From Flavobacteriales bacterium (lineage in GTDB: Bacteria; Bacteroidota; Bacteroidia; Flavobacteriales; Flavobacteriaceae), in contig JALVLX010000153.1 of NCBI GenBank assembly GCA_027032855.1, positions 1 through 28,018 of the forward strand: DNA of 28,018 bases, written 5' to 3'. The translations under genes were made by a program, and so were the position numbers. Below the pieces are notes generated by a model. That model was not told where the DNA came from, ran no database searches, and saw only the letters and a list, made by a program, of their open reading frames with translations. This document shows positions 3,613 through 26,450 of this stretch, piece after piece. Positions within the stretch are counted from its first letter, which is position 1, and each line of letters starts with the position of its first letter.

Positions 3613-3624
3613 TATTGATGTAAA

Positions 3625-6270: not shown

Positions 6271-6335
6271 TGTAGATATTTAGGAATATGTTTTTGAGAT
6301 GAAACCGGTATGATTAAAATAATACTTTTAAACTG

Positions 6336-9041: not shown

Positions 9042-9065
9042 TATCGGTATTTTTAAAAAACATAT

Positions 9066-10367
9066 TTGAAACCGGAAACATCTTTTATGAATCTACTTAA
9101 AAACAAAAAAACGTCAAGCATCCTGTTGTTAACAGGGATTGCCAAATCCAAAAAAAAACCGGATACTTCCGGATTTAAAAGGTTTATATCACACATTGAG
9201 AATAAACATAAGAAATTTACGGATTTGGAGGTATTGAAGCATCTTTTTCTGCCTGCCCATATTGATAATCTGGCAGCTGAAGAAAAAGAGCGAAAAAAAA
9301 CAAACAGTCCTCGTTGCTATACTAAAACAATCAATAAGGATTATATTTTTCATTTTGACAATGAAGCTTATAAAATACCGGTCAAACATTTGGACATTTT
9401 TTTCTTCCCGGATGAGGTAATGATCTATTCCATAAAAACCGAATTACACAATTTGCCGGTGTCATTAATCCCTGTATTTAATCATAAGATTAGAAGATTT
9501 GAATTTGAAAAAGATAGTGTGTTTGAAGAGATATTCCATATTCTCAACCGTTTATCGGAAGATGAACGGGACAAAATGGAAGAATATACTGATTTTTTGC
9601 ACCTTGTTACCAATGGTAATAAGCTAAAATCCTATCTTCTTTTGCTGGAAGATTTTAGTTATCCAAAAGATTATTCAAGGGATAATTTGATGTTTGAGCT
9701 TGCCACTTGTTCTCCTATTGGCAGTAGTACGGGAGCTACTGCCGATAAAAAATTGCAGCCGGCAACATCATATTATGAGTATATATTAGAGCAAGGCAAA
9801 ATTTCCGTATTTGAAGAATGGTGCGCTTTGTCCACTAATGATTCTTTTGTTTATGTACAAAATAATAACAGTGGTACGGGGCTTAATATCTTTCAGTGGG
9901 AACATCTGTATTACAGGTTTATTTACCTCAATGCAGTATATATATACAATTACCTTTTTGAGATTAATAAAGCCTATCGTAAAGAAAAATACGATAAGAA
10001 TTTATTGCACAAATTTTTGGATTTTGATAAAAAATATATCCTTGAAAAAATATCATATAATTTTTTACCAAATCTGGTACATAAGAAAATTAAAGCCGCA
10101 ATGGGAATAGACAATGAATTGGAGCAACTGCATACCTCTATAGACAAAGAGAGTATTAAACGTGATAGAATTTCAACTAATAAGTTGAACGCCGTGCTGC
10201 TTATTATTACATTGTTGTCTATGATATCCGTTTTTAAAGAATGGGGTGATTGGCTTGTAGAAGTGAATTTGGTACAGCTCGATACATTTTCTTATTATCT
10301 TTTCTCTTTGTTACCGGTTGGTATTGCCATATTGCTAATGTTGTTTTTTTGGCGCAGGTCGAAATAG
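9066..10367 (+). CDS. CorA-like two-TM membrane protein (no GMN motif); start may be the ATG at 9087
   Basis: Large soluble alpha/beta N-region, a long helical stalk (LLHKFLDF...ISYNFLPNLVHKKIKAAMGIDNELEQL), then two C-terminal TMs and a basic tail (WRRSK). This is the CorA-superfamily layout. Confidence 0.55.
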   Translation: MKPETSFMNLLKNKKTSSILLLTGIAKSKKKPDTSGFKRFISHIENKHKKFTDLEVLKHLFLPAHIDNLAAEEKERKKTNSPRCYTKTINKDYIFHFDNEAYKIPVKHLDIFFFPDEVMIYSIKTELHNLPVSLIPVFNHKIRRFEFEKDSVFEEIFHILNRLSEDERDKMEEYTDFLHLVTNGNKLKSYLLLLEDFSYPKDYSRDNLMFELATCSPIGSSTGATADKKLQPATSYYEYILEQGKISVFEEWCALSTNDSFVYVQNNNSGTGLNIFQWEHLYYRFIYLNAVYIYNYLFEINKAYRKEKYDKNLLHKFLDFDKKYILEKISYNFLPNLVHKKIKAAMGIDNELEQLHTSIDKESIKRDRISTNKLNAVLLIITLLSMISVFKEWGDWLVEVNLVQLDTFSYYLFSLLPVGIAILLMLFFWRRSK

Positions 10368-10592: not shown

Positions 10593-12938
10593 ATGAAAAA
10601 AATTCTTTCAATTTTCTTCTTTTTTGTAATAGGTAGTGGCGTGTTTGCACAACCATGTCAAAAGGAAAAGGAAGAAAAACCTATTTTTATAAGTACAAGT
10701 TTGGGGGAAACAGATCCTGAATTAAAGGCTGTTGATATTGACAATTTGTCAAATTTGTGGATTATTACAATGGATAAATCTACGTTAGAGGGAGAGTCCC
10801 AATTGTATTTAGACAATAGTATTCTTTTTATAATTAAGACACTTCAAGATTGCGTTTATCCAAGGATTAATTTTGATAAAGACAGATTTGTGTTTTACAA
10901 TACCGGAGTTGTGAAAGATACCGGTATGGTGAGAAGCTATACCGGTTTAAACGCTCTGAGAAGTATTGAGGCAAATTTTACTGATGCGTATATTCATTTT
11001 GTTTATCAACATGTTTATTCTCCAAAAAAAAGAAGAAGAATAAAGACAACAAATGTTAAGTTTAAAAAACATCGCGATAAAGGACTTAGTGATAAAATAA
11101 CTGAATATTTGGAAGCAAATGAACATAATTCTGAAAGAATTTACCCGTATAAGTATTCATTTGTGTCTTTAAATCATACTTTATCCTTAAGTAAAACCCT
11201 AAAATATTTTAAAAAGGAAAAAAAAGCAAGATTTAATTTGTTAAACTTTAATAAGATTTATGTTTTGAGCATAACTAATGAAGAAAACGCTTTATCTGAC
11301 GAAAATGATTATTGGTTGACGGATTATAAGACGATAAAAGAATATGCGCCCGAAAAATTAAAAGAAATAAATACTGTAATAAGCCGTTTGGTTGTAAGTC
11401 CGTTTAGTAAGACTGAGAAACCTTTTGCGCGTTTTGTGCCTGTTTTTAATAAGGCTAACAGTTATTGGAGAGTTTCACTGCTGAGGTATGAAACATTTCG
11501 GTCAATTCCGGATACAATTGGATTTTTTAATGACATCTTAAAGCTTGAAAAGAAAAACGGAGACATTTTTGTAAAATTGGCAAAAAAGCGCATTTGGGGG
11601 AATGCCATTGAACAGGTTTCAATCAAAACATTTGCACTAAATCGTTCTACTACGCCAAGTACAGATTTTATTTTTAAAGATAGCTTTCCGGTTAATATCT
11701 CAATTAACAAATTTTTTGAAAATAATATGAGGATATCCGGTTATGCACAGGTGATATATAATGATCCTGTACTGGGCAAAAAACGAAAAAAAATCTATTT
11801 TAAACAGACCATTAATTTTTATTCAAATATTTATGATATGATTTTGAAAATTTTATTGTTAGGATCGTTGCTTTTGTTTGTCGTCTATGTTTCTCAAAAA
11901 CAAATGATTGTTGTAACACCTGCGGGTTCTGTAGTGTTCAAGCGAGGTTTCTTTCTATTTTCAAAATTTACAAAACAAAATATTTTAATGCTGTTGTCTG
12001 ACGGACAAAAGATTACAAAGCTTCTAACTTGTGAATCGGTTTTGTCGTTTTTATTTGTGAAAAATAATCCAAATCTTGTTTTTGAAGCCAATGATTCCGA
12101 TTATGAAATGGTCATTATGTCTAAAAAAAGTTTTGAGGTAACAAGTGTGCTAATTAAAACCGAATTATATAAAAAGAAATCAGACAAAAAAAGTACTGCT
12201 GAGACTAAAGAAATGAAGGAGATAATCAACGCATTCAGGGAGGGTTACAATCTTCGTTTTGTCCAAAAAAATACGGAACGTTTCATCTCGATTGATAACA
12301 AATACAATATTGTTAAGAATTATATTGAAGAAATCAATCAGCCGGATGATGAAGCAAAGAACCGGGCAATGATTTCAAAATATTTTATTGAAAATAATAT
12401 ATTTAGAAAAGCTAACTACTTTTTTATGATCAATGAAGTTGGTAACAAAGTTTTTTATAACTTTGTAAGGTTTTGTACAAAAAATAAACCGGATGTAAAA
12501 ATATTAATAACATACCAGAGAGAATTGGGCGTACAAGACAACGAGAAAGCGTATCGTGAAATAAAACAATTGGCAAAGAAGTATCATTTGAATTTGCATA
12601 AAAAAATTATTTATGAGAATGATAGTGCATACAACAAACAACTGAGCCATATAACTACTTCGGTTTATCCTTTGTTTGTAGCTATTATGCCTGATAATGA
12701 AGTATTAAAAGAAAAAGATGTCATGATGATATACGATCCGTTGCTTGAAACGGACCAAGTCACATTTAAGATTCCGGAAATGCCGGATGACGGAAGACAT
12801 TATTATTTATATCAATATTCTGACGTTTATATCTATCGTTTGTCATACAATGAAAGAATACCGTATCAGGTTGATCAGCTATTGCCGTCGCACAGATATA
12901 CTTTAGATTTATCTAATGGAAAAATAAAATTAAAATAA
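10593..12938 (+). CDS. membrane protein: signal peptide, vWA-like extracytoplasmic domain (degenerate MIDAS), TM, cytoplasmic C-domain
   Basis: Signal MKKILSIFFFFVIGSGVFA|Q. WIITMDKST (D61-K-S63) resembles vWA strand 1 and KIYVLSITNEE resembles strand 4 with D replaced by N. TM at about aa 417-434. The vWA call is tentative. Confidence 0.75.
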   Translation: MKKILSIFFFFVIGSGVFAQPCQKEKEEKPIFISTSLGETDPELKAVDIDNLSNLWIITMDKSTLEGESQLYLDNSILFIIKTLQDCVYPRINFDKDRFVFYNTGVVKDTGMVRSYTGLNALRSIEANFTDAYIHFVYQHVYSPKKRRRIKTTNVKFKKHRDKGLSDKITEYLEANEHNSERIYPYKYSFVSLNHTLSLSKTLKYFKKEKKARFNLLNFNKIYVLSITNEENALSDENDYWLTDYKTIKEYAPEKLKEINTVISRLVVSPFSKTEKPFARFVPVFNKANSYWRVSLLRYETFRSIPDTIGFFNDILKLEKKNGDIFVKLAKKRIWGNAIEQVSIKTFALNRSTTPSTDFIFKDSFPVNISINKFFENNMRISGYAQVIYNDPVLGKKRKKIYFKQTINFYSNIYDMILKILLLGSLLLFVVYVSQKQMIVVTPAGSVVFKRGFFLFSKFTKQNILMLLSDGQKITKLLTCESVLSFLFVKNNPNLVFEANDSDYEMVIMSKKSFEVTSVLIKTELYKKKSDKKSTAETKEMKEIINAFREGYNLRFVQKNTERFISIDNKYNIVKNYIEEINQPDDEAKNRAMISKYFIENNIFRKANYFFMINEVGNKVFYNFVRFCTKNKPDVKILITYQRELGVQDNEKAYREIKQLAKKYHLNLHKKIIYENDSAYNKQLSHITTSVYPLFVAIMPDNEVLKEKDVMMIYDPLLETDQVTFKIPEMPDDGRHYYLYQYSDVYIYRLSYNERIPYQVDQLLPSHRYTLDLSNGKIKLK

Positions 12939-12947
12939 TATACGAGT

Positions 12948-15341
12948 ATGGAGAAAGTATTTTTACCCTTAAAATTGGAAACAAGTCTTAAAATCATTAG
13001 TCTTTCCGAAGAAAATATAGAATGGTATGATCCGGCTATTATACGAGGTGAAAATTTATTTACCTTTGAAAAAAAAGCCAGAGGTTTATTTTCGGAAGAA
13101 AATAAATTAAAAGAATATGAACTTAGTTTTGAGATTGAGGAAGAGAATGTTATAACAGAGGGCAATTACTATGAAATTACCATTAGAATTAGAAAATCAA
13201 CCAATGGTAATTTTGTTATTGAAGAAGATGACGACAAGGACGATTCTGATCCCAACGCAAAAAAGAGATTTGTTCTACAAAAAAATGAGGGTAAAATTTA
13301 CTTAAAACTGAAGACTGAACCCACACACAATTCCGTTGTAAAAGTTATTTTCAAATATATGGAAGTTGATGATGAAGAAGAGGAGGAGGCTACTGATGGA
13401 AGAGTTTATACGGGTAAGTTGATGTTGGTTAAAGTGCCTTTTTCAGATGTGGTTAATATTAATATTGATTTAGGTTCGGAAGCCACTCAGATGAATTATC
13501 GTGACAGTAAAAACTCTCTGAATAGTATCAACATAATTAATAAATTTAACAAGCAATTAAAAATTGAAAAAACAAATCCGGACGATTACTTTTTCCAAAT
13601 GGATTTGTTTAATTCCTCTTTGTTTATAACCGGAAATTTATTAGTAAAAAAAGTAGGCGGTCATTTATATCCGGCTAAAAAGTTTGACGATAATGATGTT
13701 TTTTATCGAGTACTGAGTTTAAAATCAGATTTGAATAAGAAGGATGAAGATGTGTCATATAAAGACTGGAAAACTTCTAAGAACAATATTACTCGTTTGC
13801 CCAATCCTAAAATTTTGGCACAAGTGAACGTAGATCATATCATTAGTTCTGATATTGTTTTTTTAGACAGTTACGGTGATGAAACAGATTTGTCTTTAAA
13901 CTACCCGAGCTTTATCAAACATTTTTATAAATCATTGATTGAAATAGCCATCAATAAACATAGAAGAGAAAATGGTTTTGGAGAGTTTATTACAATTAAA
14001 AATTTCAGAGTTGTTTTGTTAATGCCCAATGTTTTTAATCAGAATTATATTACCGGTGTGGTAAAATATCTGAACAAAGCCATTAATGAAAAATTTGTTA
14101 AGGAACGTTTTGGTGACAATCCACAACCAAACAGCAAGCATCCAATGGTAGAAATTTTTGTTGTGTCAGAAAGTGATGCCGCATTTATGGGGGCTTTGCG
14201 TACCGGAAATACGGGGGTTGAATCTCACAAAATAAAGAAAGGGGATAAGATTTTAATCATTGATTCGGGTAAGGGAACAACGGATTTTTCAATTGTTGAG
14301 TATCTTGATAACAACCGGTGGAAAAACATAAAACGAGGCGGGATAATTGGTGCCGGGCAGTATATTACCAATGCTTATTTTAAAAGATTGGCAAAATTGG
14401 TAAAAGAGAGTGATAATAGAAATGATTATAATAATAAAGCTTATGATAATCTGATAAGCAGCTATACTCATCCGGAAAAGTGGCAAGCAGGATATGTTAT
14501 CAGTGAAATATTGGAAACTATTAAGCGAAAATCTACGGATTATGATACTTGCCAACTTGACGAAAAGTTTGTTGAACACCTGAAAGATAATGTTGTCGAT
14601 AATAATGCAACCTACGATATAAAGATTCCGAGTAGATGTATCAAGGATGATTTGGTAAAATTGGTTGTTGAAATTGTTGATAAAATTATTGGAAATAAAG
14701 CTGAAATTTCAGATATAGATAAAATATATCTGACCGGAAGAAATTTTATGTTTGAACCTTTTAAGAATTTGCTGAAAACAAGACTTAACCAAGTAGTTTT
14801 TTCAAAAACTACCGGCGGCTTCTTTTCTAAGAAAAAACGTGTTCCGTCAGAAATTGTTGTGGTAAAAGATGAAAACCTGAAAACTCTGGCAGTAAATATT
14901 CAATCGCCTACAGATTTTGAAACCAATGCTAATAGCGGACTGTTGGGACAAGAGTTTGATTTGTACAAGCCTATAAAACACAATAACAAGGAGTATTACT
15001 ACATTGGTATGCAGTACAATGATAAAAGTATTGTCAACAAAAATGATATCATGGATGCACTTGATATGCAGGAGACCATAAATATTTCGAAATTTACGGG
15101 TGATGCAATTTTAGCACCGGGTGTTTTGCCAAGTGCAAATGGATATTATGGTAAGTTGCTGGAAGAAATAGATAAAATAGTTGTAGAAGATTGTAGGTTT
15201 ATACTTTATGAAAAAAAAGAAGAAGATACTAAAGAACCCGAAACCCAAAAGCCGGTTGTTGAAAACCAAGGTGTTGTAAACAAAAATGATGATGCGAACA
15301 GCAATAACAAATCTGATAATCCTGATGAATATAAAATATAG
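12948..15341 (+). CDS. divergent actin/Hsp70-superfamily ATPase with extra N-terminal domain
   Basis: Phosphate-1 INIDLGSEATQ (D174), connect-1 VVSESDAAF (E408), phosphate-2 ILIIDSGKGTTDFSIV (D439), GGIIGAGQYIT, and adenosine motif IYLTGR (G597), in the correct order. No signal peptide. Confidence 0.85.
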   Translation: MEKVFLPLKLETSLKIISLSEENIEWYDPAIIRGENLFTFEKKARGLFSEENKLKEYELSFEIEEENVITEGNYYEITIRIRKSTNGNFVIEEDDDKDDSDPNAKKRFVLQKNEGKIYLKLKTEPTHNSVVKVIFKYMEVDDEEEEEATDGRVYTGKLMLVKVPFSDVVNINIDLGSEATQMNYRDSKNSLNSINIINKFNKQLKIEKTNPDDYFFQMDLFNSSLFITGNLLVKKVGGHLYPAKKFDDNDVFYRVLSLKSDLNKKDEDVSYKDWKTSKNNITRLPNPKILAQVNVDHIISSDIVFLDSYGDETDLSLNYPSFIKHFYKSLIEIAINKHRRENGFGEFITIKNFRVVLLMPNVFNQNYITGVVKYLNKAINEKFVKERFGDNPQPNSKHPMVEIFVVSESDAAFMGALRTGNTGVESHKIKKGDKILIIDSGKGTTDFSIVEYLDNNRWKNIKRGGIIGAGQYITNAYFKRLAKLVKESDNRNDYNNKAYDNLISSYTHPEKWQAGYVISEILETIKRKSTDYDTCQLDEKFVEHLKDNVVDNNATYDIKIPSRCIKDDLVKLVVEIVDKIIGNKAEISDIDKIYLTGRNFMFEPFKNLLKTRLNQVVFSKTTGGFFSKKKRVPSEIVVVKDENLKTLAVNIQSPTDFETNANSGLLGQEFDLYKPIKHNNKEYYYIGMQYNDKSIVNKNDIMDALDMQETINISKFTGDAILAPGVLPSANGYYGKLLEEIDKIVVEDCRFILYEKKEEDTKEPETQKPVVENQGVVNKNDDANSNNKSDNPDEYKI

Positions 15342-15343
15342 TT

Positions 15344-17959
15344 ATGAAGCCAATTGTTAAGAAAAACGGAATAAAAATAATCTTAATCTTACTGTTATTA
15401 TTAATTGTATTTTTTTCAATTAAGAGTATAAAATCAACGGATAGATTAAGCCAAGTTTTTTATAATAGTGAACCCGAAGTTGAAATACCTGCGGAAGCTG
15501 TTGCGATGAACTTTTTCTTACAACAGCACGATACTTCGATTAATTCTAAAATAATTTTACAGGTTTATGAGCGTCAAACCCCTGACGCGTTGGTTATAAA
15601 GTTGTTTGGAAAAGGAAAACTTATTGACAGTTTGCAACTGGTTTATACAAATGATACTTTAAAGGTAGAAACCTTAAAAAACGCAAATCCTTTTTTAAAA
15701 AAAACTAAATTGGATTTGTTGTTTGGAAGTGCAAATAAATGGGATTTAGCAAAATACAAGTCAAAGACAATTATTGAAAAACTTAATTGGAATGATATAA
15801 AACCGGATGAAAAATATGATAGTAAAAGAAAAATAAATTCGTTACCGGCAAAAGCTTTTTTTGCTCAAATATTAAAAAACAAGTATCGTGCGCAAAATCC
15901 TAAAAAGGATTATTTGTTGTTAATATACAAACCCAAAACGAACGGTACTTTTGCAAAAGATGATTTCAAAACACTGTTTGTTAATAAACAAGAGGTAATT
16001 GACCAATATTCAAATTACTTAAAACAACAAAGAGACAACCTGTCAAAGAACAATCATTCCGGTGTATTTGATTTAGTACGTAAAGGTGAAAATTATAAGA
16101 TTGTTGAGAAAGGCAAAAAACAACTTAGTTCAAAAAAGACGTTGGGGAAAAAATTGCCTCAATCATTATTTAATTTCTTTTCATTGCTGGAAAATAGAAC
16201 TTTAGACAGGACTAAAACCAGATATAAGGCCTTTAATTATATTTCATATCTCAATTTATCAGTACCGGGAGGAAAGTGGAAAGAGTATTTTGAAAAACAT
16301 AAGAATGATAAATTTGAAGATTTTATAGCTGGTGCACTTCTTTTGCAAATGGATACTTGGAAAAAGGATAAATTGCATTTGGAATATGGAAAAGATAAAA
16401 ACGGACAAACTTTTATCAGTATTTCATCCGGCAAAATTTTTAATCCGGCATGGATTGTTCTGGTGTTGTCATTGCTGGGAATTGTACTGATTTTATTAGA
16501 TGGAATAACCAAAAACAAATTAATTGTTCAAAAAGAAAAAATACAAAATAATCAATGGACTAATTATTTGTCCGGTTTAATTCAAACGCAAGAGAATGAG
16601 GGGATTAAACAAAAACTTTTGGCTTATAAAGACAATCATGATTATTTACAACAATGTTTGGATATAAAAAGGAAAGGCAATGAAGATGTAGTAAAATTGA
16701 TTGAAAAAGGTAATTTGGAAGAGGCGCTTAAGCAAAAGAATGACAGTATCAAGAAGTTGAATAGCAAGTTAGAAAAAATTACGAAGGCAAAAAGCATTGA
16801 GGAACTTAATCAACTGGGAGTAAATATTGAGAACCCCGTTGAACAATTAGATTCTAATGATAATTTTGAAGGTTTTTATCAAAAACTGGTTAATCTTTAT
16901 AAGAATTATGCAACGGAATTGAATAATTTAAAGCTAGATGCCGGAAAATATCGTCAGCTTGAAAAATTGACTGATATTGTTAGTTTAAAGGATAATATTT
17001 CAAACAAAACACTAGTTGCCAAACTCGATGAACTGTTGAAGTTTGCAACGGCTTACAAGGACATACTCAGCATGTCAAAGTGGAATGATTTGAAACAAAA
17101 TAAGGAATTATTCAATAAACTTAATGCGCTTCGTCCCGATAAAACATTGCTTGAAGAAAAAGACTTTGATAAATTTTATGATTTGTTGACGGTGTCTTAT
17201 TCTCAATATAGCGATAAACTGAAACAGTATAAAGAGGTTTCACAATTCTTATCTCAAAATAATCTTGATAGAAACGAATTGAAAGACATGTTGATAAAAC
17301 TGAAAGCAATCAACAAAAAGCCTTATGAAGCATTCAATATAATTTATAACGAAATTTATTTGAAAATAACAAATGCGGAAAGACTTGGTGATATTAAAGA
17401 ATTGCTCAATGAATTCAGTAAAATTGACTATGAAGAAAATTTGCAATATTTGCTAAAATTAGAGAATACCGGTTCATTAAAAGTAGATAAAATATTAAAT
17501 AAAATTATTGAAAATGGTATAAATTCCGACAATGTAGATAGTTTCTTTAACTCGTATAAACTTCAAAAACAATTTATGTCAAAATTACCCGGTTTGATTG
17601 ATGAAGTTTGGGATTCGTTAGAAGAGGTTGAACTGAACAATCCGGTTGTATTTGAACCGGAGCAAATCATCAATCTTATGAAGTTTTATAATATAATGAG
17701 AGATTACGAAAGAACTTACAGAAAAGGCAATGATATGCACTATAAAAAATACAAAGCAAATGTATTTAAACTGATAGGCGATGAGGAAACTGCCAAAAAT
17801 TTGGTTGAAAAATTTGATGTTGTAAACGGTATTTATTCTCATCAGGTTAAAATCATGTATTTTTATATTGGTGAGCATCTCAATGCATATAAAGGAAAGA
17901 TTGATTTTTACATTGATGGTACCGACTTTTCAGAGTATTTTGAAAATTTAAAAAAGTAA
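15344..17959 (+). CDS. two-TM membrane protein with extracytoplasmic domain and long cytoplasmic helical/coiled-coil region
   Basis: N-terminal anchor at about aa 10-25 and a second TM at about aa 370-387, followed by about 480 aa of K/E/L/N-rich helical sequence. Confidence 0.8.
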   Translation: MKPIVKKNGIKIILILLLLLIVFFSIKSIKSTDRLSQVFYNSEPEVEIPAEAVAMNFFLQQHDTSINSKIILQVYERQTPDALVIKLFGKGKLIDSLQLVYTNDTLKVETLKNANPFLKKTKLDLLFGSANKWDLAKYKSKTIIEKLNWNDIKPDEKYDSKRKINSLPAKAFFAQILKNKYRAQNPKKDYLLLIYKPKTNGTFAKDDFKTLFVNKQEVIDQYSNYLKQQRDNLSKNNHSGVFDLVRKGENYKIVEKGKKQLSSKKTLGKKLPQSLFNFFSLLENRTLDRTKTRYKAFNYISYLNLSVPGGKWKEYFEKHKNDKFEDFIAGALLLQMDTWKKDKLHLEYGKDKNGQTFISISSGKIFNPAWIVLVLSLLGIVLILLDGITKNKLIVQKEKIQNNQWTNYLSGLIQTQENEGIKQKLLAYKDNHDYLQQCLDIKRKGNEDVVKLIEKGNLEEALKQKNDSIKKLNSKLEKITKAKSIEELNQLGVNIENPVEQLDSNDNFEGFYQKLVNLYKNYATELNNLKLDAGKYRQLEKLTDIVSLKDNISNKTLVAKLDELLKFATAYKDILSMSKWNDLKQNKELFNKLNALRPDKTLLEEKDFDKFYDLLTVSYSQYSDKLKQYKEVSQFLSQNNLDRNELKDMLIKLKAINKKPYEAFNIIYNEIYLKITNAERLGDIKELLNEFSKIDYEENLQYLLKLENTGSLKVDKILNKIIENGINSDNVDSFFNSYKLQKQFMSKLPGLIDEVWDSLEEVELNNPVVFEPEQIINLMKFYNIMRDYERTYRKGNDMHYKKYKANVFKLIGDEETAKNLVEKFDVVNGIYSHQVKIMYFYIGEHLNAYKGKIDFYIDGTDFSEYFENLKK

Positions 17960-17967
17960 ATTAGCGT

Positions 17968-20900
17968 ATGAGTTTATCTGAATATTTGTTATCAGGACTT
18001 TTTTTTATAATTGTTTTTTTTGTTCTGTTTAATTTTTTTAAAGAAAAAATTGCTAAAAGAGGTATAGAAATTATATTGTTTTTTTCTTTGTTTTTTGTCG
18101 GTTTATCCTATTATGCCTTTAGGAGTTTGACCCATTCCTCCGACAAAAATATGTACACAAATACCGATTTGTTACATTTGGAATTAACAGGATATCAATT
18201 CGATTCGATTGTCAATTTATTCAATAGCAGAACTGATGATAACTTAAGCCGGGTGGTCCCTCAAAATAATAAGTATGCCGGATTTATTAATTCCAACAGA
18301 TACGAAACAGCTTTGTTTGACCGAGAAAAAGGCTATTTGTCTGTTATTAAAGATACTGATAACAAATATTCATTATCATATCGCTATTTGTCAAAGCCAT
18401 TGTATGTTCAAAATGAAAAAAACGAATATGAACTACAAAAAGCCGGTTGTTTAATACTTGACAGTTTGCCTGTTTTTATCAAATTTGATGAAAAAACTTA
18501 TAAGATTAACAAAAAGAAATTTAATAAAGAAAAAAGAAAGATAAAGCAAGACACAACAATCAGTGAATATTTAACAATCAAATTAAATAAGGAAGAAAAA
18601 AACAAAATCAGTTTTAATTTTGAATTTATTGGACGAAAAAAATATTCTAATATTAAATCTGAACCTTTGTCATACAAGTACGGCTTGCCTTTGTTAGATA
18701 TTCTAGCCACTTGTGATATCAAAGTTCCCCTTACAGATCAACAAAAGGAAATATTAAATGATACTTATATTCTTAGAGGAGTTTACGGCTATAAAAAGAG
18801 CCGGATATATTTATTTCCCGGGCATAATTTATCTCTAGCTCCAAAAGCCGGTTATGGATATTCAGAAAAAAATATACAAACAGGTGACAACTTGCATACG
18901 GTTCAACTTCCTGTCAACAAAAAGTTTTTTTTGGGGATTGGACATGAGCAAACACCCAAGTGGACGGTAAAATCCGGTAATAATAATAAGTCTGTTCTGG
19001 AATATAAACTTAAACCTAAATTTCCTCTTTATACAAAGGATACGATTTCAAAAATGTACCTGTCAACGGACCTAAATGAAATTATCAGAAATTCATCTTA
19101 TTATAACGGGGTTATTTCTTTTGGAAATCTAAAAGATAATAATGTTAACCACATAGATGCCTCAATACACTATGCCAACGATGATATAAATACTGCTTAT
19201 AAGTTAAAATTAGTAGATCATAATCGTAATAAACAACTTGATAAAGATATTGTTAACAAACAAATCGCATTGGCAACGAAAGCTAATGTAGGACCGGATT
19301 ATTTAATTAAGATTAGCGCCCCCATTAAACAACACCCGATACATAAGTACCCTTGGGCTGTTTTCGGCTTACTTTTTTTATACCTTTGGCTTCTGGCTAT
19401 CTTTAAAAGAAGAGAGGAAATAAAGAATAGCTTCAACAAAACCATAAAGATTAGCTATTTTATCGAATCTTTGGTTATTTGGGTTCTTTTGGCTTTTATA
19501 ACATTACGAATGGTTGTTTATTGGCGTTTGATTGCATTTCCGCCACTCAAAGACATTACATATAATGAATATATTAAAATAGTTGATCAAAATTCGAATC
19601 GTTTATTTTCAATATATCCGAAATACAAATTGCTGTTATCCGGCATCATGCTATTACTATTATTGTTGATTGCAAGATATACGATACTTCCGGTTCTTAA
19701 AACAAAAATTGAAAAAATAATAAGCAAATTTCAAAAACTCAGTGAAAATTCGGCTGATGCATGGAAGAAAAACGTTCTGATTCCATTTTTAGTTTTGTTT
19801 GTTATCACTGTTATACTGGAAATTTTGTTTAAAGATTTAATTCTAATAAAGATATTTTTCCCGTTTGTAGCATTTTTCTATATGCAGCGCCGTTTATTTG
19901 TTTTGGGGTATGTCAGCTTAAAATATTTATTGTTACCGGTTTTATATTTAGGGGTTTTCATCATTTTTGATAAGGGTTTTTTCCCGATTTTAATGCTTTT
20001 TTTGGTACTATATTACCTGACTATATACTTCATCTTTAACCCAAAGAAGACAAACAAACAAAAAAATAGATTGCTTTATTTATTGGGAGGCATTTTATTG
20101 GTTGTTATTTTATTATTTCCTTTCAAGCCTCTACGTTCGGCAGTCGCAACTACCTTAAAATCCTTTCACAGCAACGGTTTAAATAGAATCGCTTATCGTT
20201 TTGATATACTTGATTATAGCGTTGGCGAAATTCTTTACGGAACTGCCTACAAATCTGATAATGCACAGAAAGCAAGTTGGGCTGCTTCAAGTTTTTGGTT
20301 TACCAAGAACTATCTGTATAAACAGTATTATAATAAGCATCATGATGTCGTCGTAGAGGGTAAAAGCAAGAAAATAAAAGACTTACCCGCAAATTTTGAT
20401 ACTTTTTATCCAACCAGAGCCGGCGTTAGTATCATCAATCAAACCCGCGATTTGGTTTTGGTTAGATATATAATTTATGAACATGGTTTATGGGTGCCGT
20501 TTTTGTTAATAGCCTATTTGATTCTTCTGTTTTTTGTATATTTTTATTATACCTATGATGCCAGTTTTATCTACACGGATACCGGCCGTAATCAATATTT
20601 TACTAAGATAAGTTATAAATCGTTCAATCTGATTTTTGCCGGCATTGTGTTGTTTCTGATAAGTGTCAATTTAATTATCTACTTGGTTAATTTGAATCAG
20701 TATCCGTTTTTGGGACAAGATTTTTTATTCTTAACAATGACGGGTTTTTCCACGATTGTTTCCGGGATATTTATTTTCGCGGCACTTATCTTGCTGATTG
20801 ATAAGGATAATTTTAATATTGATACCAACAGAAATGCTACGTTCATACAGGTAATGCAAAATTGGATTAACAATAAGGGAAAAATTACCAAAGAATCTTT

Positions 20901-23562
20901 CCCGGTTTTGTCTTTTATATCAATTGTAATTTTGTTGGCTTTAGTGTTGTTGCTTTACCCTAACCGGTTAAACAATCAATTAACAGCATTGGCTAACAAG
21001 GATAAAGGTAATCATGAAAATTTAGATTATAAGGTTAGAAAGCCTATAGAAGCTTTACTTAATTTTACTTCAGAATTTAATAAACCGTTTAAGTCTTATC
21101 AGCGTCATTTAATCAATAAAATTAAAAACAGAAACAGTTTTTATATACCAAAAAAATATATTGAAAAGGTAGTAGCCGGTGTGGCAAATGATTCTGTTTC
21201 AAAAGATTCTAAAATGGATTTTATAATACATGGAAAGAAAATTTCTTTTGATGTAAAAGATTTTGTAGATGAAATGACCCCACATTACAAGGCAATTAAA
21301 CAAAAATATAAAGATTCAATTTATGTCATGTCCGCTTTTAAAGATTTTGCCAATCAGGAAAATCTACAAACTTTTAAACATGTGTTGTATTTGCGCAAAA
21401 ACAGAAATGGCATTTACAGTTTGGGTGTAAATCGCCGTTATTATACGATTGCCGCCATTTTTGATAAATCGGATAAAGATAAATGGAGTGGAGATTTAAT
21501 GGCCAATACTTTTGTTAAAGATATCAGTGTGCAGATTGATAAAAAATATAGTAGAAAAGATGTTAAATTCACCAAAGGAAATTTGCCGCCATGGGCAAAA
21601 ACAATCTCAAACGTCAGCTTTAATGATTATTTTAACATATATAAAATTGACGGTGATGTATTGGGATATGAAAAACCGCGATTAATTGCCAAGATTGCAC
21701 GAAATAGTGAAAAAAATATTGATATTTTTTTGAAAACAGCAGATGAGGGAGAAAGTATTAGAAAAGGAAAGGATTTGTTCGATTATTATTTAGAAACAAA
21801 TGACATAATTAAATTACATGCCGGCAACAATACGTATCAAATGAGAGTTGTTTATAAAAATGGTAAATATTTGGCACATAAATATCATTACAATGGTGTT
21901 GAAAGATATTTTTATCCCTTAGGAAAAGACTTTGTTTGGGCGTATGCGGCAGTCAATCATTTTCAAAACTATGGCACGCCTGAATTAAAGGACAGCATCA
22001 TAGAAACAAGTTTTGATTATATTTTACACCAACAACTATTGAAAGACTTAAGAACCAGAAGTAATGCCTACGTAACCGTTGCCGATGCACGAGGCAGAAT
22101 TTGGGCAATGGTTGATAAAAACAGAGATAAAAGAGCTTTTCGTATAGACCCGAATAATCCGGTCGATTTTACTAAGAAAACAGCCCAAACTTTTTTCGGT
22201 AATGCACCCTTTAGAGAAGAGGATGTGTTTGGAACGCGAAATCTTAGAATCAATAAAAATGGTTTTGGTTCAACCATAAAACCCATTATTTACGGTGCTG
22301 TAACTTCTCGTCTGCAAATGCCCGGTATTGCGTGGAACAGTATTGTGGTAAATAATATTATTCCTCAAAGATATGATACTAATACTAAAAAAACAGGTCA
22401 TCAATATTTTGGTGGAAAAAAATTCTATCCTATTTGGGTAGAATCAATAAGTAGAGAGTTTCGTACAAATGAGGATATCAATAATAGAGAATATCTGGTA
22501 AAGTCCAGAAACATGTACAACGCCATAGTTGTTGCGCTTGGGGCATATCCGAGCGAAGCATTCGCTAATCGTGGAAATTATAACCTTCGTAATGTGTTGT
22601 TGAGTGAAACAGACTTGAATAATAAATATGATAACGATTCAACATTTATGTTCCCACGCTTAATAATAAATGGTTCTTATCATTACTTTGATTTTAAAAA
22701 CAAAAAGAATTACTACGGAATACTAGATGAAGGTTTGGATAAAAACTATAAATTTATTTCTAAAAATAAAAAAACAGAGAATCTGAGAACTTACGAGATA
22801 AAGAATTATTACCAAAGCTTTAAAAGCGTTAAGAAGGATACGGCAAATTCAAAAAATATAGGAGTAGGCATCGGATACCGTATGTTTTTCCCTGAACGCA
22901 TGCGTTTTGTTAGATTTGTGGACAATAATTTTTATCAAAATGTTATCAATCCGGCTAAAGCCGGAACTCCTTTTGAGTTAACCCAATTCGGAATGGTTGA
23001 AAGTATTTTGAAGCTATTTACTTTTAACAGGGATTTTCAATTAGGTTTTGTTAAAGATTCATTGAAAAAAAGCCAAATATTAAATAGAGTAAACTGGGAG
23101 GTTAATCCCGGAAATAGAAAACATGTATTTAAAACATTTGTTCAAAACAATATCTTTAAATTTATGAATCTTTCTGTTTTAGAAGGGACTTCTGCAGGTT
23201 TAAAAAAACAACTTAACACGGTAAGAGGCTTTAGTTCAAAAACAGAAAACGAACAAATATATTTTGAGTATAATAATCAAAGATTTTACGTATATGCCAA
23301 AACAGGAACATCAAACAGCAATAGAAGCGGTAAAAATGATAAATCGCAATTTTTCATCATTAGTAATACTGATTTAACTAACAGTCAGGCTTATCCGGAA
23401 GGTAAAAACAAAGAAAAAAATGCGAAGAGTAAACCTAAGATTGTAGCAATTCATATCTTTTTACCTAATATTTCAGGGAGAGAAAGTACTGAAATTAAAA
23501 GTAAAATCATAGCATCGATAATAAAATCCCAATCAATGGAAAATTATTTTGAACAAAATTAA
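17968..23562 (+). CDS. SEDS (FtsW/RodA-like) glycosyltransferase fused to class B PBP-type transpeptidase, with extra N-terminal periplasmic domain
   Basis: About 14 TMs. SEDS-like motifs FDKG (D668), TRDLVLVRYIIYEHG (D828) and YPFLGQDFLFLTMTG. Then a TM at about aa 980-996, RYFYPLG, VADARGRIWAMV, GSTIKP (S1435-x-x-K), SRN (S1513) and AKTGTS (K1778). Confidence 0.85.
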   Translation: MSLSEYLLSGLFFIIVFFVLFNFFKEKIAKRGIEIILFFSLFFVGLSYYAFRSLTHSSDKNMYTNTDLLHLELTGYQFDSIVNLFNSRTDDNLSRVVPQNNKYAGFINSNRYETALFDREKGYLSVIKDTDNKYSLSYRYLSKPLYVQNEKNEYELQKAGCLILDSLPVFIKFDEKTYKINKKKFNKEKRKIKQDTTISEYLTIKLNKEEKNKISFNFEFIGRKKYSNIKSEPLSYKYGLPLLDILATCDIKVPLTDQQKEILNDTYILRGVYGYKKSRIYLFPGHNLSLAPKAGYGYSEKNIQTGDNLHTVQLPVNKKFFLGIGHEQTPKWTVKSGNNNKSVLEYKLKPKFPLYTKDTISKMYLSTDLNEIIRNSSYYNGVISFGNLKDNNVNHIDASIHYANDDINTAYKLKLVDHNRNKQLDKDIVNKQIALATKANVGPDYLIKISAPIKQHPIHKYPWAVFGLLFLYLWLLAIFKRREEIKNSFNKTIKISYFIESLVIWVLLAFITLRMVVYWRLIAFPPLKDITYNEYIKIVDQNSNRLFSIYPKYKLLLSGIMLLLLLLIARYTILPVLKTKIEKIISKFQKLSENSADAWKKNVLIPFLVLFVITVILEILFKDLILIKIFFPFVAFFYMQRRLFVLGYVSLKYLLLPVLYLGVFIIFDKGFFPILMLFLVLYYLTIYFIFNPKKTNKQKNRLLYLLGGILLVVILLFPFKPLRSAVATTLKSFHSNGLNRIAYRFDILDYSVGEILYGTAYKSDNAQKASWAASSFWFTKNYLYKQYYNKHHDVVVEGKSKKIKDLPANFDTFYPTRAGVSIINQTRDLVLVRYIIYEHGLWVPFLLIAYLILLFFVYFYYTYDASFIYTDTGRNQYFTKISYKSFNLIFAGIVLFLISVNLIIYLVNLNQYPFLGQDFLFLTMTGFSTIVSGIFIFAALILLIDKDNFNIDTNRNATFIQVMQNWINNKGKITKESFPVLSFISIVILLALVLLLYPNRLNNQLTALANKDKGNHENLDYKVRKPIEALLNFTSEFNKPFKSYQRHLINKIKNRNSFYIPKKYIEKVVAGVANDSVSKDSKMDFIIHGKKISFDVKDFVDEMTPHYKAIKQKYKDSIYVMSAFKDFANQENLQTFKHVLYLRKNRNGIYSLGVNRRYYTIAAIFDKSDKDKWSGDLMANTFVKDISVQIDKKYSRKDVKFTKGNLPPWAKTISNVSFNDYFNIYKIDGDVLGYEKPRLIAKIARNSEKNIDIFLKTADEGESIRKGKDLFDYYLETNDIIKLHAGNNTYQMRVVYKNGKYLAHKYHYNGVERYFYPLGKDFVWAYAAVNHFQNYGTPELKDSIIETSFDYILHQQLLKDLRTRSNAYVTVADARGRIWAMVDKNRDKRAFRIDPNNPVDFTKKTAQTFFGNAPFREEDVFGTRNLRINKNGFGSTIKPIIYGAVTSRLQMPGIAWNSIVVNNIIPQRYDTNTKKTGHQYFGGKKFYPIWVESISREFRTNEDINNREYLVKSRNMYNAIVVALGAYPSEAFANRGNYNLRNVLLSETDLNNKYDNDSTFMFPRLIINGSYHYFDFKNKKNYYGILDEGLDKNYKFISKNKKTENLRTYEIKNYYQSFKSVKKDTANSKNIGVGIGYRMFFPERMRFVRFVDNNFYQNVINPAKAGTPFELTQFGMVESILKLFTFNRDFQLGFVKDSLKKSQILNRVNWEVNPGNRKHVFKTFVQNNIFKFMNLSVLEGTSAGLKKQLNTVRGFSSKTENEQIYFEYNNQRFYVYAKTGTSNSNRSGKNDKSQFFIISNTDLTNSQAYPEGKNKEKNAKSKPKIVAIHIFLPNISGRESTEIKSKIIASIIKSQSMENYFEQN

Positions 23563-23575
23563 AATTAATCAATCA

Positions 23576-24064
23576 ATGAAAGACTTATTAAAAAATAACA
23601 TATTTTTTCTACTGATATTGGTATTCGCGATTGCATTTTTTTGGAAATTTAGCAATAAAACTGAAAAAACAAGCAACACACTTTTGGAAAAACAATTTGA
23701 TTTGGAAAAAAGAGCCAATATCAAAATTAAAGCCAATTATTTGGATTCTATTTTTACAACCGGTCGTTGGCACATGAACAATAAAATAAAATTTAACGGA
23801 GTTGAAAAATCAGATGACAAAATAATAGTGAAATATACGCTTGCAGAACCTAATTCTGATAATTTTTACGATTTGATATTTAATGATGATAGTAATTTGG
23901 TAAAAGAAAAAAATGATTCGTTATGGGATAACTCTATGAAAGCAAATGAAGGAGTTTTTACGTTTAAAGAGGTATCCAAAAAAAATGATACACTTTACGT
24001 TACGGTGCCGGTATCATTACTAACAAATTTTTTATACAAAACAGATAATTTCCAAAAACATTGA
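23576..24064 (+). CDS. small bitopic membrane protein, hypothetical
   Basis: Single N-terminal TM (IFFLLILVFAIAFFW) then a beta-rich domain. The ATG at 23576 is preferred over the overlapping TTG at 23549. Confidence 0.75.
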   Translation: MKDLLKNNIFFLLILVFAIAFFWKFSNKTEKTSNTLLEKQFDLEKRANIKIKANYLDSIFTTGRWHMNNKIKFNGVEKSDDKIIVKYTLAEPNSDNFYDLIFNDDSNLVKEKNDSLWDNSMKANEGVFTFKEVSKKNDTLYVTVPVSLLTNFLYKTDNFQKH

Positions 24065-24125: not shown

Positions 24126-24977
24126 ATGCGTTTTTTATTTAAAAGTAATTTTATCATTTTCCTGTTTTTTGCGACAACAGCTTTTACTTTGCCTCAAGAT
24201 ACAAGAGAGCAATATAAAATCTGCAGAATTCACCATCTGTCTTACAAACAAACAATTCCGGAAAGCAGATTCAAAAATCTGAAAATGATTGGTACGGTCA
24301 ACAAGTTTGGCGTTCAGGGGAAAAATAAACAAGAACGCTTGTACGGTGCCATACTCAGAGCTTTGCGGTTCCAAAATATCACTAGAAAGGTTGAAAAAAA
24401 ATACGGTTTATCAAAAAATCTCCTGTTGGCAATGATTATGCAAGAGAGTGGCGGCGTAGATATTTTGCCAAACGGTAGAAACGATGGTGGTGCCGGATTG
24501 TGTCACATGCAACCCATGATAGCTAAAGATTTTGGACTGAAAGTCTATCAAAATTGCAATAAAATGGTGTCAAAAGTTCATGGTAGAGCCTTGCGTAGAT
24601 TGATAGTTAAGTATAAATCGGACCGTAAAAAACTAATCAAATTTGACGACCGATTTCATCCTATTAAAAATATTGATGCAGTAGCACGAATTCTACAGTT
24701 TTATAAGAATGCCGGCTTTTCAAGAAAAATATATAATACCCAAGAAAAAAGAGCCATAAGAGGTTATACGGGAAAGTATAATTTTAAAAAATATTATAGC
24801 AACCTAAAGTATTATCAAAGAATGTTGAATAATAAAAAAGTTATTAATGAAGTGAGAAAAATGTTTAACAAAAAAAATAAGAACTTCTTAATTGATGGCA
24901 AAAAAGGCAATTTTGACAGCTACATCAAAGCACATCAAAAACAAAACATCAATTACGGTTTAAACAGGTACAAGTAA
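24126..24977 (+). CDS. SLT-family lytic transglycosylase (lysozyme-like fold), secreted
   Basis: Signal peptide; KYGLSKNLLLAMIMQESGG (catalytic E107), GAGLCHMQPMIA (motif II), FHPIKNIDAVARIL. Confidence 0.85.
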   Translation: MRFLFKSNFIIFLFFATTAFTLPQDTREQYKICRIHHLSYKQTIPESRFKNLKMIGTVNKFGVQGKNKQERLYGAILRALRFQNITRKVEKKYGLSKNLLLAMIMQESGGVDILPNGRNDGGAGLCHMQPMIAKDFGLKVYQNCNKMVSKVHGRALRRLIVKYKSDRKKLIKFDDRFHPIKNIDAVARILQFYKNAGFSRKIYNTQEKRAIRGYTGKYNFKKYYSNLKYYQRMLNNKKVINEVRKMFNKKNKNFLIDGKKGNFDSYIKAHQKQNINYGLNRYK

Positions 24978-24998
24978 TTGTGTTTTAAAATTATATAT

Positions 24999-26450
24999 AT
25001 GAAAATTAGAATTGGATTTGCAATTTTTTTATCATTATTCTTTTTGTTGTCTTGTGAAACTGGCCAAAAAAATGACCAAAAAGAAACACCTCCGGAACCC
25101 GTCCAAACAAAATTTACCCTAAAGGATTTTTTGACGTCCAATAAATTTTTAGACAAAAAAGTCGATAGTATTTTTAAAACACTTTCTAGTAAACAAAAGG
25201 TATCTCAACTAATAATAGCATCTGTAGGAGACAAAAAAACAGATAATTTCAAACAAGTTGAAAAACTGGTAAAAAATAAGATAATAGGAGGTGTTGCTAT
25301 GTTTAGAGATGCTAAGGATACCATAAAAAGGAGAATAAAAATCTTAAATAACGAAAACACCAACATACCGTTATTGTTTAGCATTGATGGCGAACCCGGC
25401 TTGATAAACAGACGTTTAAAATCAAACATTGTTTCTATCAAAAATACCAGTGATTTAAAAACTACAACACAGGTTAAAAATATAGCCGAAAAGATTACGA
25501 ATACTTTAGTAGATATCGGAATCTATCAAAATTATGCACCGGTATATGATTTAAGCTACAACAAAGCTATTATCAATAAAAGATCTTTTGGAAACAAACC
25601 GGAAACTATCAAAAAGCTGGGCAAAGCCTTTATCAACGAAACACAAAAGAAAATTGTGGCAACGGTAAAGCACTTTCCCGGACACGGAAATGTTAAAGGG
25701 GACAGTCACAAGCAGTTGGTATATATTGACGGGAAGTTAAAAGAACGTGAATTGTTTCAAAGTGCAATAGATGACGGGGTATATGCTGTTATGGTTGGAC
25801 ACATTGCTATCAAAAATAACAAAAAGTATAATACAAATGGGCTACCGGCTACTTTATCAAAAAATATTGTTACGGACTTACTCAAGAACGAAATGAAATT
25901 TAAAGGATTGGTCGTGACAGATGCCTTTACAATGAAAGCCGTAAATGATATTCCCAATGCAGGGATTAAAGCCATTGAAGCCGGTTGCGACCAAATACTG
26001 ATGCCGGAAAATCCTGAGACTTTTTTCAACAGCGTTCTGAAAAAATACAAAACGGACAAACAATTTGCAAAAACGGTTGATAACGCCACAAAAAAGAATA
26101 TTCGCCTAAAAATTTGTTTAGGATTTTTTGATCACCCCAAAAAACAAAAGAAATCACAATCCAAAGCCAAAACATATACATTTAAAGGACACGTTGATAA
26201 ATATCCGGTAAAAATGACGTTGCATATCGTTGGTAATAGTGTAACAGGTTCATATACTTATACCAATAATAATATTACACTGCGTCTGGGTGGTTCGATA
26301 AAGGCAAACAGGTTGGTACTTTTTGAAAGAAATAAAGCAAATCAAAAAACAGGTAAATTCATAGGTAAAATGGAGAATAATACGTTTTCGGGCGTATGGC
26401 AAAATTTGAAAACTAAAAAGCAGTTAAACTTTTCTCTCAAGTCAAGCTGA
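24999..26450 (+). CDS. nagZ: GH3 beta-N-acetylglucosaminidase (NagZ-type) lipoprotein with an extra C-terminal beta domain
   Basis: Lipobox LLSC (C19 from the ATG at 24999); SIDGEPG, NYAPVYDL, RSFG, KHFPGHGNVKGDSH (NagZ signature), VMVGHI, GLVVTDAFTM, AGCDQILM. Confidence 0.9.
   Translation: MKIRIGFAIFLSLFFLLSCETGQKNDQKETPPEPVQTKFTLKDFLTSNKFLDKKVDSIFKTLSSKQKVSQLIIASVGDKKTDNFKQVEKLVKNKIIGGVAMFRDAKDTIKRRIKILNNENTNIPLLFSIDGEPGLINRRLKSNIVSIKNTSDLKTTTQVKNIAEKITNTLVDIGIYQNYAPVYDLSYNKAIINKRSFGNKPETIKKLGKAFINETQKKIVATVKHFPGHGNVKGDSHKQLVYIDGKLKERELFQSAIDDGVYAVMVGHIAIKNNKKYNTNGLPATLSKNIVTDLLKNEMKFKGLVVTDAFTMKAVNDIPNAGIKAIEAGCDQILMPENPETFFNSVLKKYKTDKQFAKTVDNATKKNIRLKICLGFFDHPKKQKKSQSKAKTYTFKGHVDKYPVKMTLHIVGNSVTGSYTYTNNNITLRLGGSIKANRLVLFERNKANQKTGKFIGKMENNTFSGVWQNLKTKKQLNFSLKSS

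Follow-up and report, generated by a model that had tools for sequence, protein, structure and literature searches.

The window analysed here is a stretch of 28,018 nucleotides (positions 1-28,018 of contig JALVLX010000153.1) from a Flavobacteriales bacterium, and this report concerns a giant gene on its forward strand, the product of which is a single chain of 1864 amino acids (aa) predicted to join a SEDS-type glycosyltransferase fold to a class B penicillin-binding protein (PBP). We call this protein P0001, its nearest relative P0002, and other members of the family that are named below P0003, P0005, P0009 and P0091. An earlier note on this DNA had described one 1864-aa chain with ten transmembrane (TM) helices, a large loop between the seventh and the eighth of them that includes D828 (codon at 20449), a short cytoplasmic linker and one more TM helix. 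This layout holds: the frame is open throughout, and hydropathy and the AlphaFold2 helices agree on the topology, with the ten helices spanning aa ~491-943. The PBP motifs that it listed (RYFYPLG, S1435-T-I-K, S1513-R-N and K1778-T-G) are likewise all present at their residues and codons. Beyond these, the chain has an N-terminal TM hairpin, a large outer domain and an extra TM helix that the note did not describe. The features of the gene are as follows.

17968-23562 (+): gene of P0001, predicted giant SEDS-like/class B PBP fusion; uninterrupted open reading frame of 1864 aa
17983-18120 (+): N-terminal TM hairpin, aa 6-51, joined by the basic loop KEKIAKRG; from hydropathy, with the orientation predicted by the positive-inside rule
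18121-19347 (+): N-terminal domain of ~400 aa, aa 52-460, predicted to be periplasmic by the positive-inside rule; conserved family-wide
19348-19425 (+): extra TM helix, aa 461-486, which would bring the chain back to the cytoplasm ahead of the SEDS-like bundle; AlphaFold2 helix at model residues 6-32
19438-20811 (+): ten-helix bundle of predicted SEDS fold, aa ~491-948; from VIA-align, AlphaFold Database (AFDB) clusters and ESM neighbours
20128-20487 (+): large outward loop between TM7 and TM8 that resembles extracellular loop 4 (ECL4), aa 721-840 (120 aa), ending in QTRDLVLVRYIIYEHG; from hydropathy and AlphaFold2 helices
20449-20451 (+): D828, predicted counterpart of the putative catalytic SEDS Asp (E. 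coli FtsW D297); from an hhalign alignment
20713-20745 (+): GQDFLFLTMTG, aa 916-926, loop resembling extracellular loop 5 (ECL5) and aligned with SEDS G-x-P-L-P-x-x-S-Y-G-G; from hhalign and conservation
20899-20994 (+): TM helix anchoring the PBP part, aa 978-1009, preceded by the cytoplasmic linker (aa 945-977); from hydropathy and AlphaFold2 helices
20995-21468 (+): extra membrane-proximal alpha/beta region, aa 1010-1167; from the AlphaFold2 model, outside the range aligned to any PBP
21469-23550 (+): class B PBP module (pedestal and transpeptidase with inserts), aa 1168-1861; from Foldseek, VIA-align, hhalign and profile search
22270-22281 (+): S1435-T-I-K1438, SxxK acyl-serine motif, in register with PGSTFK of canonical class B PBPs
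22504-22512 (+): S1513-R-N1515, SxN motif, in register with SsN of canonical class B PBPs
23299-23307 (+): K1778-T-G, KTG motif, which reads YAKTGT in P0001, in register with GKTGTA

The outer region that follows the TM anchor comprises 855 aa, with RYFYPLG at aa 1313-1319. In the N-terminal domain N65, G75, G122 and R270 are invariant (58 sequences), but the domain has no Pfam match, and its profile gave nothing credible in the PDB (a single match to uS15, E-value (E) 0.02).

Structure and conservation of the two halves

Conventional annotation passes over this protein. Pfam and NCBIfam scans of P0001 find neither FTSW_RODA_SPOVE nor Transpeptidase, neither phmmer of P0001 nor a five-sequence profile matches anything in the PDB, and BLASTP of its two halves against RodA and PBP2 of its own genome is not significant. 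A word-indexed search of 5.8 billion proteins returned four relatives only. When a profile was searched exhaustively against 1.84 billion cluster representatives, 425 clusters (at 50% identity) reached E <= 1e-3, and 258 of them E <= 1e-30. The members are nearly all 1700-2100 aa long, those with a name are annotated as "hypothetical protein", and we found no published description of the family in the literature. The family is thus large, divergent and undescribed, and what is new is this giant, Pfam-invisible family and its cassette rather than the single-chain idea.

The C-terminal half is the easier of the two to place. We modelled aa 1000-1864 with AlphaFold2 from 76 sequences, with a predicted local distance difference test score (pLDDT) of 82 and a predicted template modelling score (pTM) of 0.85. 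A Foldseek search of the PDB with this model returns class B PBPs for all 50 best matches (best E 1.5e-9), and VIA-align superposes it on class B PBPs with Z scores of 23-26 and root mean square deviations (RMSDs) of 3.0-3.8. The structural alignments begin at approximately residue 49-70 of the PBP2 and PBP3 chains and reach the C-terminus (e.g., residues 63-613 of E. coli PBP2). Sequence comparison gives the same picture: hhalign of 76 family members against 30 canonical Bacteroidota class B PBPs reaches a probability of 97.7% (E 1.6e-12, 271 columns), with the SxxK, SxN, TPL-type, GTA and KTGT motifs all in register, and all eight matches of the family profile in the PDB (hmmsearch) are PBPs (best E 4.8e-4). 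The register of this profile alignment and the superposition of the entire domain lend indirect support to the prediction that SxxK, SxN and KTG would meet in one active-site pocket. FYPLG, GxIxxM and DPN, which are signatures of the class B pedestal, are conserved across the family. PF00905 has no match in P0001 above its curated cut-off of 22.1 bits, which is exceeded by P0005 (23.7) and P0009 (26.4) and narrowly missed by P0003 and P0091; since P0005 and P0009 pass, P0001 belongs to the PF00905 family by transitivity. The PBP half is therefore of class B type, as the earlier note had proposed, with a TM anchor and a non-catalytic pedestal and without the glycosyltransferase domain of class A. 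Two parts lack a counterpart in canonical class B PBPs, namely aa 1010-1167 and the inserts of the transpeptidase domain, which add up to ~130 residues. These inserts raise the motif spacing to 78 and 265 aa, compared with 56 and 150-163 in canonical enzymes (56/163 in PBP2 and 56/150 in FtsI of the same genome), so the unusual spacing noticed earlier is real.

For the SEDS half, an AlphaFold2 model of aa 455-1010 was built from 77 sequences (pLDDT 82, pTM 0.88), and structural comparison agrees with the earlier view of this bundle as SEDS-like. When the model was compared exhaustively by VIA-align with 48,161 PDB representatives, the best match was E. coli RodA (8tj3_B; Z 17.3, 302 of its 341 residues aligned), followed by T. 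thermophilus RodA (6pl5_A; Z 17.1) and P. aeruginosa FtsW (8bh1_A; Z 16.6). These superpositions cover 302-318 residues with RMSDs of 3.8-4.6, over model residues 39-498, and leave the extra TM helix (aa 461-486) outside the aligned stretch. Both ends of the ten-helix bundle lie on the cytoplasmic side, as in SEDS proteins. The next structural neighbour is the WaaL ligase, with a Z score of only 8.5, and unrelated chains score 7.9 or less. Foldseek also places FtsW first in the PDB, but with an E-value of 0.35 and TM-scores of 0.26-0.35, so that it is the VIA-align comparison that decides the matter. Among the AFDB clusters matched with a probability of at least 0.9, several are named FtsW or FtsW/RodA/SpoVE, and such clusters rank on top; 90 of the 100 nearest clusters in ESM language-model feature space carry PF01098.

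Two motifs of the bundle can be set against those of SEDS proteins, both by a single, weak hhalign alignment, which places the family consensus QTxDLVxxRYxIxEH on SEDS DFIF..EE (ECL4) and GQDFPxLS on GxPLPFiSYGG (ECL5). In E. coli FtsW the ECL4 residue D297 is a putative catalytic residue (PMC8765783), and the corresponding Asp motifs in the canonical proteins of the window's own genome read HTDWILTVVGEQWG in RodA and SDFIYAIIIEEY in FtsW. By this alignment D828 appears to be equivalent to the SEDS catalytic Asp, with an acidic residue before TM8. The family differs from SEDS proteins in a two-residue insertion in the ECL4 motif and in having E-H where SEDS has E-E. The ECL5 consensus of the family, F-x-G-Q-D-F-P-x-L-S-x-x-S, aligns with the SEDS motif (GQPLPLLSSGG in FtsW of the same genome), with P0001 having L in place of P920 and T in place of S923. 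SEDS sequence models miss the TM domain of P0001 and those of ten relatives, so that its SEDS assignment rests on structure and on these two motifs.

Conservation was scored over 146 full-length members with a median identity to P0001 of 21%, and the proposed functional positions are the best conserved of the family. D828 is Asp in 145 of the 146 sequences; E838, G916 and D918 are kept in all of them and Q917 in 143. Within the ECL4-like loop, R744, G819, Q825, D828, R833 and E838 are conserved to 99-100%. On the PBP side, none of the 146 members lacks S1435, K1438, S1513 or N1515, and K1778, T1779 and G1780 are present in 144-145. Because the motifs persist in 144-146 of 146 relatives at so low an identity, they are not chance occurrences, and the same counts agree with the earlier description of the catalytic residues as apparently intact.

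The cassette and its distribution

The giant gene lies within a run of genes at 10593-24064, which are separated by only 2-9 bases or overlap. We compared six loci (the studied window, one metagenome contig and four Chitinophagaceae genomes), and the order of an ~800-aa ATPase, a variable membrane adaptor and the giant gene is conserved at all of them. The genes that accompany the giant gene in the window are as follows.

10593-12938 (+): first cassette gene, 781 aa, with an N-terminal signal/TM segment and a TM helix at 416-434; in only some carriers
12948-15341 (+): partner, cytoplasmic ~800-aa ATPase of the actin/Hsp70 fold (ASKHA); motifs DLGSEATQ and DSGKGTTD; no TM helix
15344-17959 (+): partner, membrane adaptor of variable sequence and length (871 aa in the window); two TM helices (8-26, 371-389) and a long helical tail in the cytoplasm; conserved position
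23549-24064 (+): partner, small bitopic protein of 171 aa, the gene of which shares 14 bases with the end of the giant gene

Homologous ATPase genes are found at six of the six loci. The ATPase gives weak matches to Actin, Arp8, HSP70 and diol dehydratase reactivase, and its neighbours in feature space are HSP70, SrfB and MreB. The adaptor between it and the giant gene keeps its position but neither its sequence nor its length, which ranges from 339 to 1265 aa. Directly after the giant gene, five of the six loci have a bitopic reading frame of 149-172 aa, with no detectable sequence similarity among these small proteins. The product of the first cassette gene has an outer N-terminal half and a cytoplasmic C-terminal half. 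It has a homolog at the L007 locus (E 3e-26), and a gene of similar size (778 aa) occupies the same position at the P0003 locus; it is missing from the four Chitinophagaceae loci, two of which carry an unrelated 280-aa bitopic protein instead. A promoter and terminator scan gave counts at the level of shuffled sequence.

Two further groups of genes flank the cassette in the window. At 24126-26450, 62 bases downstream, a 283-aa protein with an SLT lytic-transglycosylase match (24.6 bits, above the cut-off) abuts a NagZ-like beta-N-acetylhexosaminidase of family GH3. The two enzymes belong to peptidoglycan turnover, and none of the other five loci compared shows them paired with the cassette. 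Upstream, at 692-10367, lies a separate five-gene cluster made up of a 354-aa protein, an nSTAND1 NTPase, two paralogous LRR+TPR+WG-repeat proteins (881 and 901 aa) and a 433-aa protein with two TM helices. This cluster, which had been labelled earlier as a candidate conflict system flanked on both sides by a 20-bp direct repeat, is unlinked to the cassette in other genomes.

The giant gene is present in five of 401 sampled Bacteroidota genomes, and in none of the 28 from the window's own family. These five genomes, and none of the other 396, also carry a member of the ATPase family; its profile was built from sequences of those carriers, so that the informative part of this result is the absence from the 396. 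Five more distant carriers (Emticicia aquatilis and metagenome-assembled genomes (MAGs) of a Winogradskyella, a rumen Bacteroidales, a Fibrobacter and a Saprospiraceae member) each have a single ATPase homolog, which by its coordinates lies only a few kb from the giant gene, where the two genes are assumed to share a contig in the Fibrobacter MAG and in the Saprospiraceae MAG, the latter with the ATPase on the opposite strand. The giant gene is accessory and genomically coupled to the ASKHA ATPase.

A pattern scan of species-level genomes, based on a five-sequence alignment, gives 72 loci. Emticicia, Taibaiella and Edaphocola account for approximately 8-10 each, and the rest are scattered over Flavobacteriaceae, Bacteroidales, Saprospiraceae, Chitinophagaceae and one Fibrobacter. 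One family member (L050, CALRLS020000016.1) is on a 24-kb contig of a MAG labelled Cyanobium sp., with an E-value, identity and locus length like those of the Emticicia loci; this contig is probably mis-binned and is not evidence for the family outside the FCB group. What flanks the cassette varies from locus to locus and consists mostly of ordinary housekeeping genes, and a PADLOC scan returned no matches to defence models.

The window's genome and four complete carriers retain canonical FtsW, RodA and MreB, so the cassette is an addition to the standard machinery and not a replacement for it. Canonical FtsI and PBP2 are also retained in the window's genome, and a genome-wide PF01098 scan of the carriers matches only at canonical FtsW and RodA. 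The window's genome is itself a MAG with a completeness of only 69%; its 261 contigs total 1.46 Mb at ~30% GC.

Interpretation and alternatives

The fold of both enzymatic modules is shown by these comparisons, and we put at roughly 0.93 the probability that P0001 is what the models depict, a natural single-chain fusion of an outer N-terminal domain, a SEDS fold, a TM anchor and a class B pedestal and transpeptidase. We infer that it is also an active peptidoglycan polymerase and cross-linker within an accessory machine, a view that we hold with odds modestly in its favor. The SEDS-like bundle would polymerise lipid II through the conserved ECL4 residue D828, and cross-linking of the new glycan strand would fall to the fused PBP, with S1435 as its acyl serine and K1438, S1513/N1515 and K1778-T-G assisting. 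The single chain may stand in for the non-covalent contact of the TM anchor and pedestal with the SEDS protein in RodA-PBP2 and FtsW-FtsI. In this scheme the giant protein would be the enzymatic core of an accessory cassette that supplements the canonical divisome and Rod system. The actin/Hsp70-fold ATPase could position the synthase or switch it on, in the manner of FtsA or MreB, by way of the cytoplasmic helical tail of the bitopic adaptor, and the N-terminal domain, aa 1010-1167 and the transpeptidase inserts would probably carry regulation or substrate specificity.

Several results weigh against this interpretation. PF01098 has no match in P0001 or in the TM regions of ten relatives, and the 77-sequence TM profile finds no SEDS chain, or anything else, in the PDB. 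The hhalign comparison of the TM profile with 30 Bacteroidota SEDS proteins is weak, with a local E-value of 0.004 at a probability of only 8%, and a probability of 40% in global mode, which is unreliable in the N-terminal half of the domain. The SEDS residues that could be mapped are those of the ECL4 and ECL5 motifs only, and do not include, for example, FtsW W138 and R243. Carriage by five genomes in 401, together with the varied flanks, would fit a non-housekeeping or mobile role as well. Finally, P0001 and P0002 are the most deviant members of the family, with changes at 14 of 77 near-invariant positions compared with a median of three.

The deviations of this last pair include P920L (ECL5), S923T, G1665A and P1673Q (TPL motif), while the catalytic positions are all kept. 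P0002 deviates at the same 14 positions as P0001, with the identical residue at nine of them, and this pattern suggests a change that became fixed in their lineage rather than decay. We also considered that the P0001 gene is a decaying pseudogene, which is ruled out by the intact 5.6-kb frame and by the shared deviant positions.

One alternative keeps both folds and changes the substrate. Here the bundle would act on another undecaprenyl-linked glycan, in the style of Wzy or WaaL, or on a modified lipid II, and the PBP would be a specialised DD-peptidase (carboxy-, endo- or trans-) working on a non-canonical acceptor, so as to build a special envelope layer instead of the ordinary sacculus. 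In favour of this view are that every SEDS sequence model misses the TM domain, that WaaL is the next structural neighbour, and that the ECL4 motif has its insertion and E-H in place of E-E, together with the presence of large inserts in the transpeptidase, of aa 1010-1167 and of the 400-aa outer domain. We nevertheless regard it as unlikely, as the Z score to SEDS proteins is double that to WaaL and nearly the whole of RodA is aligned. Moreover, a class B PBP with a pedestal, here fused to the bundle, is a partner specific to SEDS peptidoglycan polymerases, and the ECL5 motif conserved in the family is of SEDS type.

Two other readings were considered. One would make the cassette a mobile conflict or stress module in which the ATPase triggers remodelling or reinforcement of the wall upon phage attack, antibiotics or envelope damage. 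Its sporadic occurrence, its absence from the 28 sampled genomes of the window's own family and its flanks, which no two loci share (ArdC and CoiA genes lie near one of them), are in line with this, as is the STAND-NTPase/LRR cluster beside the cassette in the window; but that neighbourhood is not seen at the other loci compared, the flanks are mostly housekeeping genes, no PADLOC model matches, and carriage by many Emticicia, Taibaiella and Edaphocola species points to vertical inheritance, so that we find the proposal improbable. Less probable still is a scaffold or BlaR-like sensor, in which the folds would be kept for protein contacts or ligand sensing and both modules would be inactive. 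The loss of several near-invariant residues, among them P920 and P1673, in the P0001/P0002 branch could be read this way; against it stand the uninterrupted frame, the catalytic positions, all intact in P0001 and 99-100% conserved in the family, and the sharing of nearly all deviations between P0001 and P0002, which argues for a lineage-specific change.

We advance tentatively, and with somewhat less than even expectation, the idea that Bacteroidota have in this cassette a third self-contained machine for building peptidoglycan, which would work alongside the divisome and the Rod system. Such a machine would have its own actin-fold ATPase, its own adaptors, a single-chain synthase, outer domains that target its synthesis to some specialised structure or condition, and its own beta-lactam sensitivity.

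Bacterial growth and division centre on SEDS-class B PBP pairs, which are also prime antibiotic targets, and to our knowledge only two or three functional types of them have been described (elongation, division and sporulation). If our interpretation is correct, the P0001 family would be one more class of wall synthase, made up of fused enzymes with ~800 extra residues and a dedicated actin-like ATPase, and would show that domain-based surveys undercount such enzymes. It would also offer a natural single-chain system for studying how polymerisation is coupled to cross-linking and how a cytoskeletal ATPase controls both; cultured carriers exist in Emticicia, Taibaiella, Edaphocola and Spongiimicrobium.

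Comparison with known systems

The closest parallels are the RodA-PBP2 (6pl5, 8tj3) and FtsW-FtsI (8bh1, 8p1u) pairs. Like P0001, as modelled, these have a ten-helix SEDS fold with a conserved Asp in the loop between TM7 and TM8, and a PBP built from a single-TM anchor, a pedestal and a transpeptidase with SxxK, SxN and KTG motifs. Their ECL5 motif, of the form G-x-x-x-P-x-x-S, has a parallel in the consensus of the P0001 family, from which P0001 itself departs at the Pro and the Ser. The working logic is likely the same as well, namely polymerisation followed by cross-linking under the control of an actin-fold ATPase. P0001 differs in being one chain instead of two and in having ~800 extra residues, which are distributed over the N-terminal hairpin, the 400-aa outer domain, the extra TM helix, the 1010-1167 region and the transpeptidase inserts. 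In addition, PF01098 never detects the family and PF00905 does so in some relatives only, and the partner ATPase of ~800 aa is neither MreB nor FtsA.

A more distant similarity is that to ligases and polymerases of the WaaL/Wzy type (7tpj), which share with the SEDS half a polytopic fold and a large outward loop. The similarity (Z 8.5) is half that to SEDS proteins, the motifs are different, and no PBP is fused to these enzymes.

With respect to architecture, the relevant comparison is with fusions that are already known. The earlier note had taken SEDS proteins and class B PBPs to be normally separate, which is true as a rule; single-chain fusions have nonetheless been catalogued, in a 2025 survey that lists 117 InterPro proteins of ~950 aa, such as a 947-aa protein of Rhodococcus jostii (PMC12516126). 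The single-chain principle is therefore not novel. The same survey describes a 1341-aa chimera of Pedobacter ginsengisoli with Ser/Thr kinase and phosphatase neighbours (PMC12516126), and among our own structural matches the PDB entries 4r3j and 4mnr are transpeptidase domains of Coriobacteriia SEDS-class B PBP fusions. Chimeras of the Pedobacter ginsengisoli type resemble P0001 in belonging to Bacteroidota, in joining a SEDS protein to a transpeptidase and in being accessory to the canonical sets, but PF01098 and PF00905 are both detected in them, and they have no kinship to P0001 at the sequence level. We also observed a Pfam-visible fusion of this kind in another Bacteroidota genome (G013, C28:26370-29063), a 1222-aa frame with PF01098 (E 7.8e-52) and PF00905 (E 2.4e-36) that is unrelated in sequence to the P0001 family.

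The catalogued chimeras in general follow the same order as P0001 of glycosyltransferase, pedestal and transpeptidase, coexist with canonical FtsW and FtsI, and are known as fusions from sequence (PMC12516126). P0001 would have escaped a survey of domain architectures, as neither of its domains is annotated by Pfam or NCBIfam, whereas the chimeras of ~950 aa are seen by both Pfam models. Members of the P0001 family are approximately twice as long and have an outer N-terminal domain, and the genomic setting is also different: the neighbours of the catalogued chimeras are mreB, rlmH or kinase and phosphatase genes, whereas the P0001 cassette combines its giant gene with an ASKHA ATPase and bitopic adaptors.

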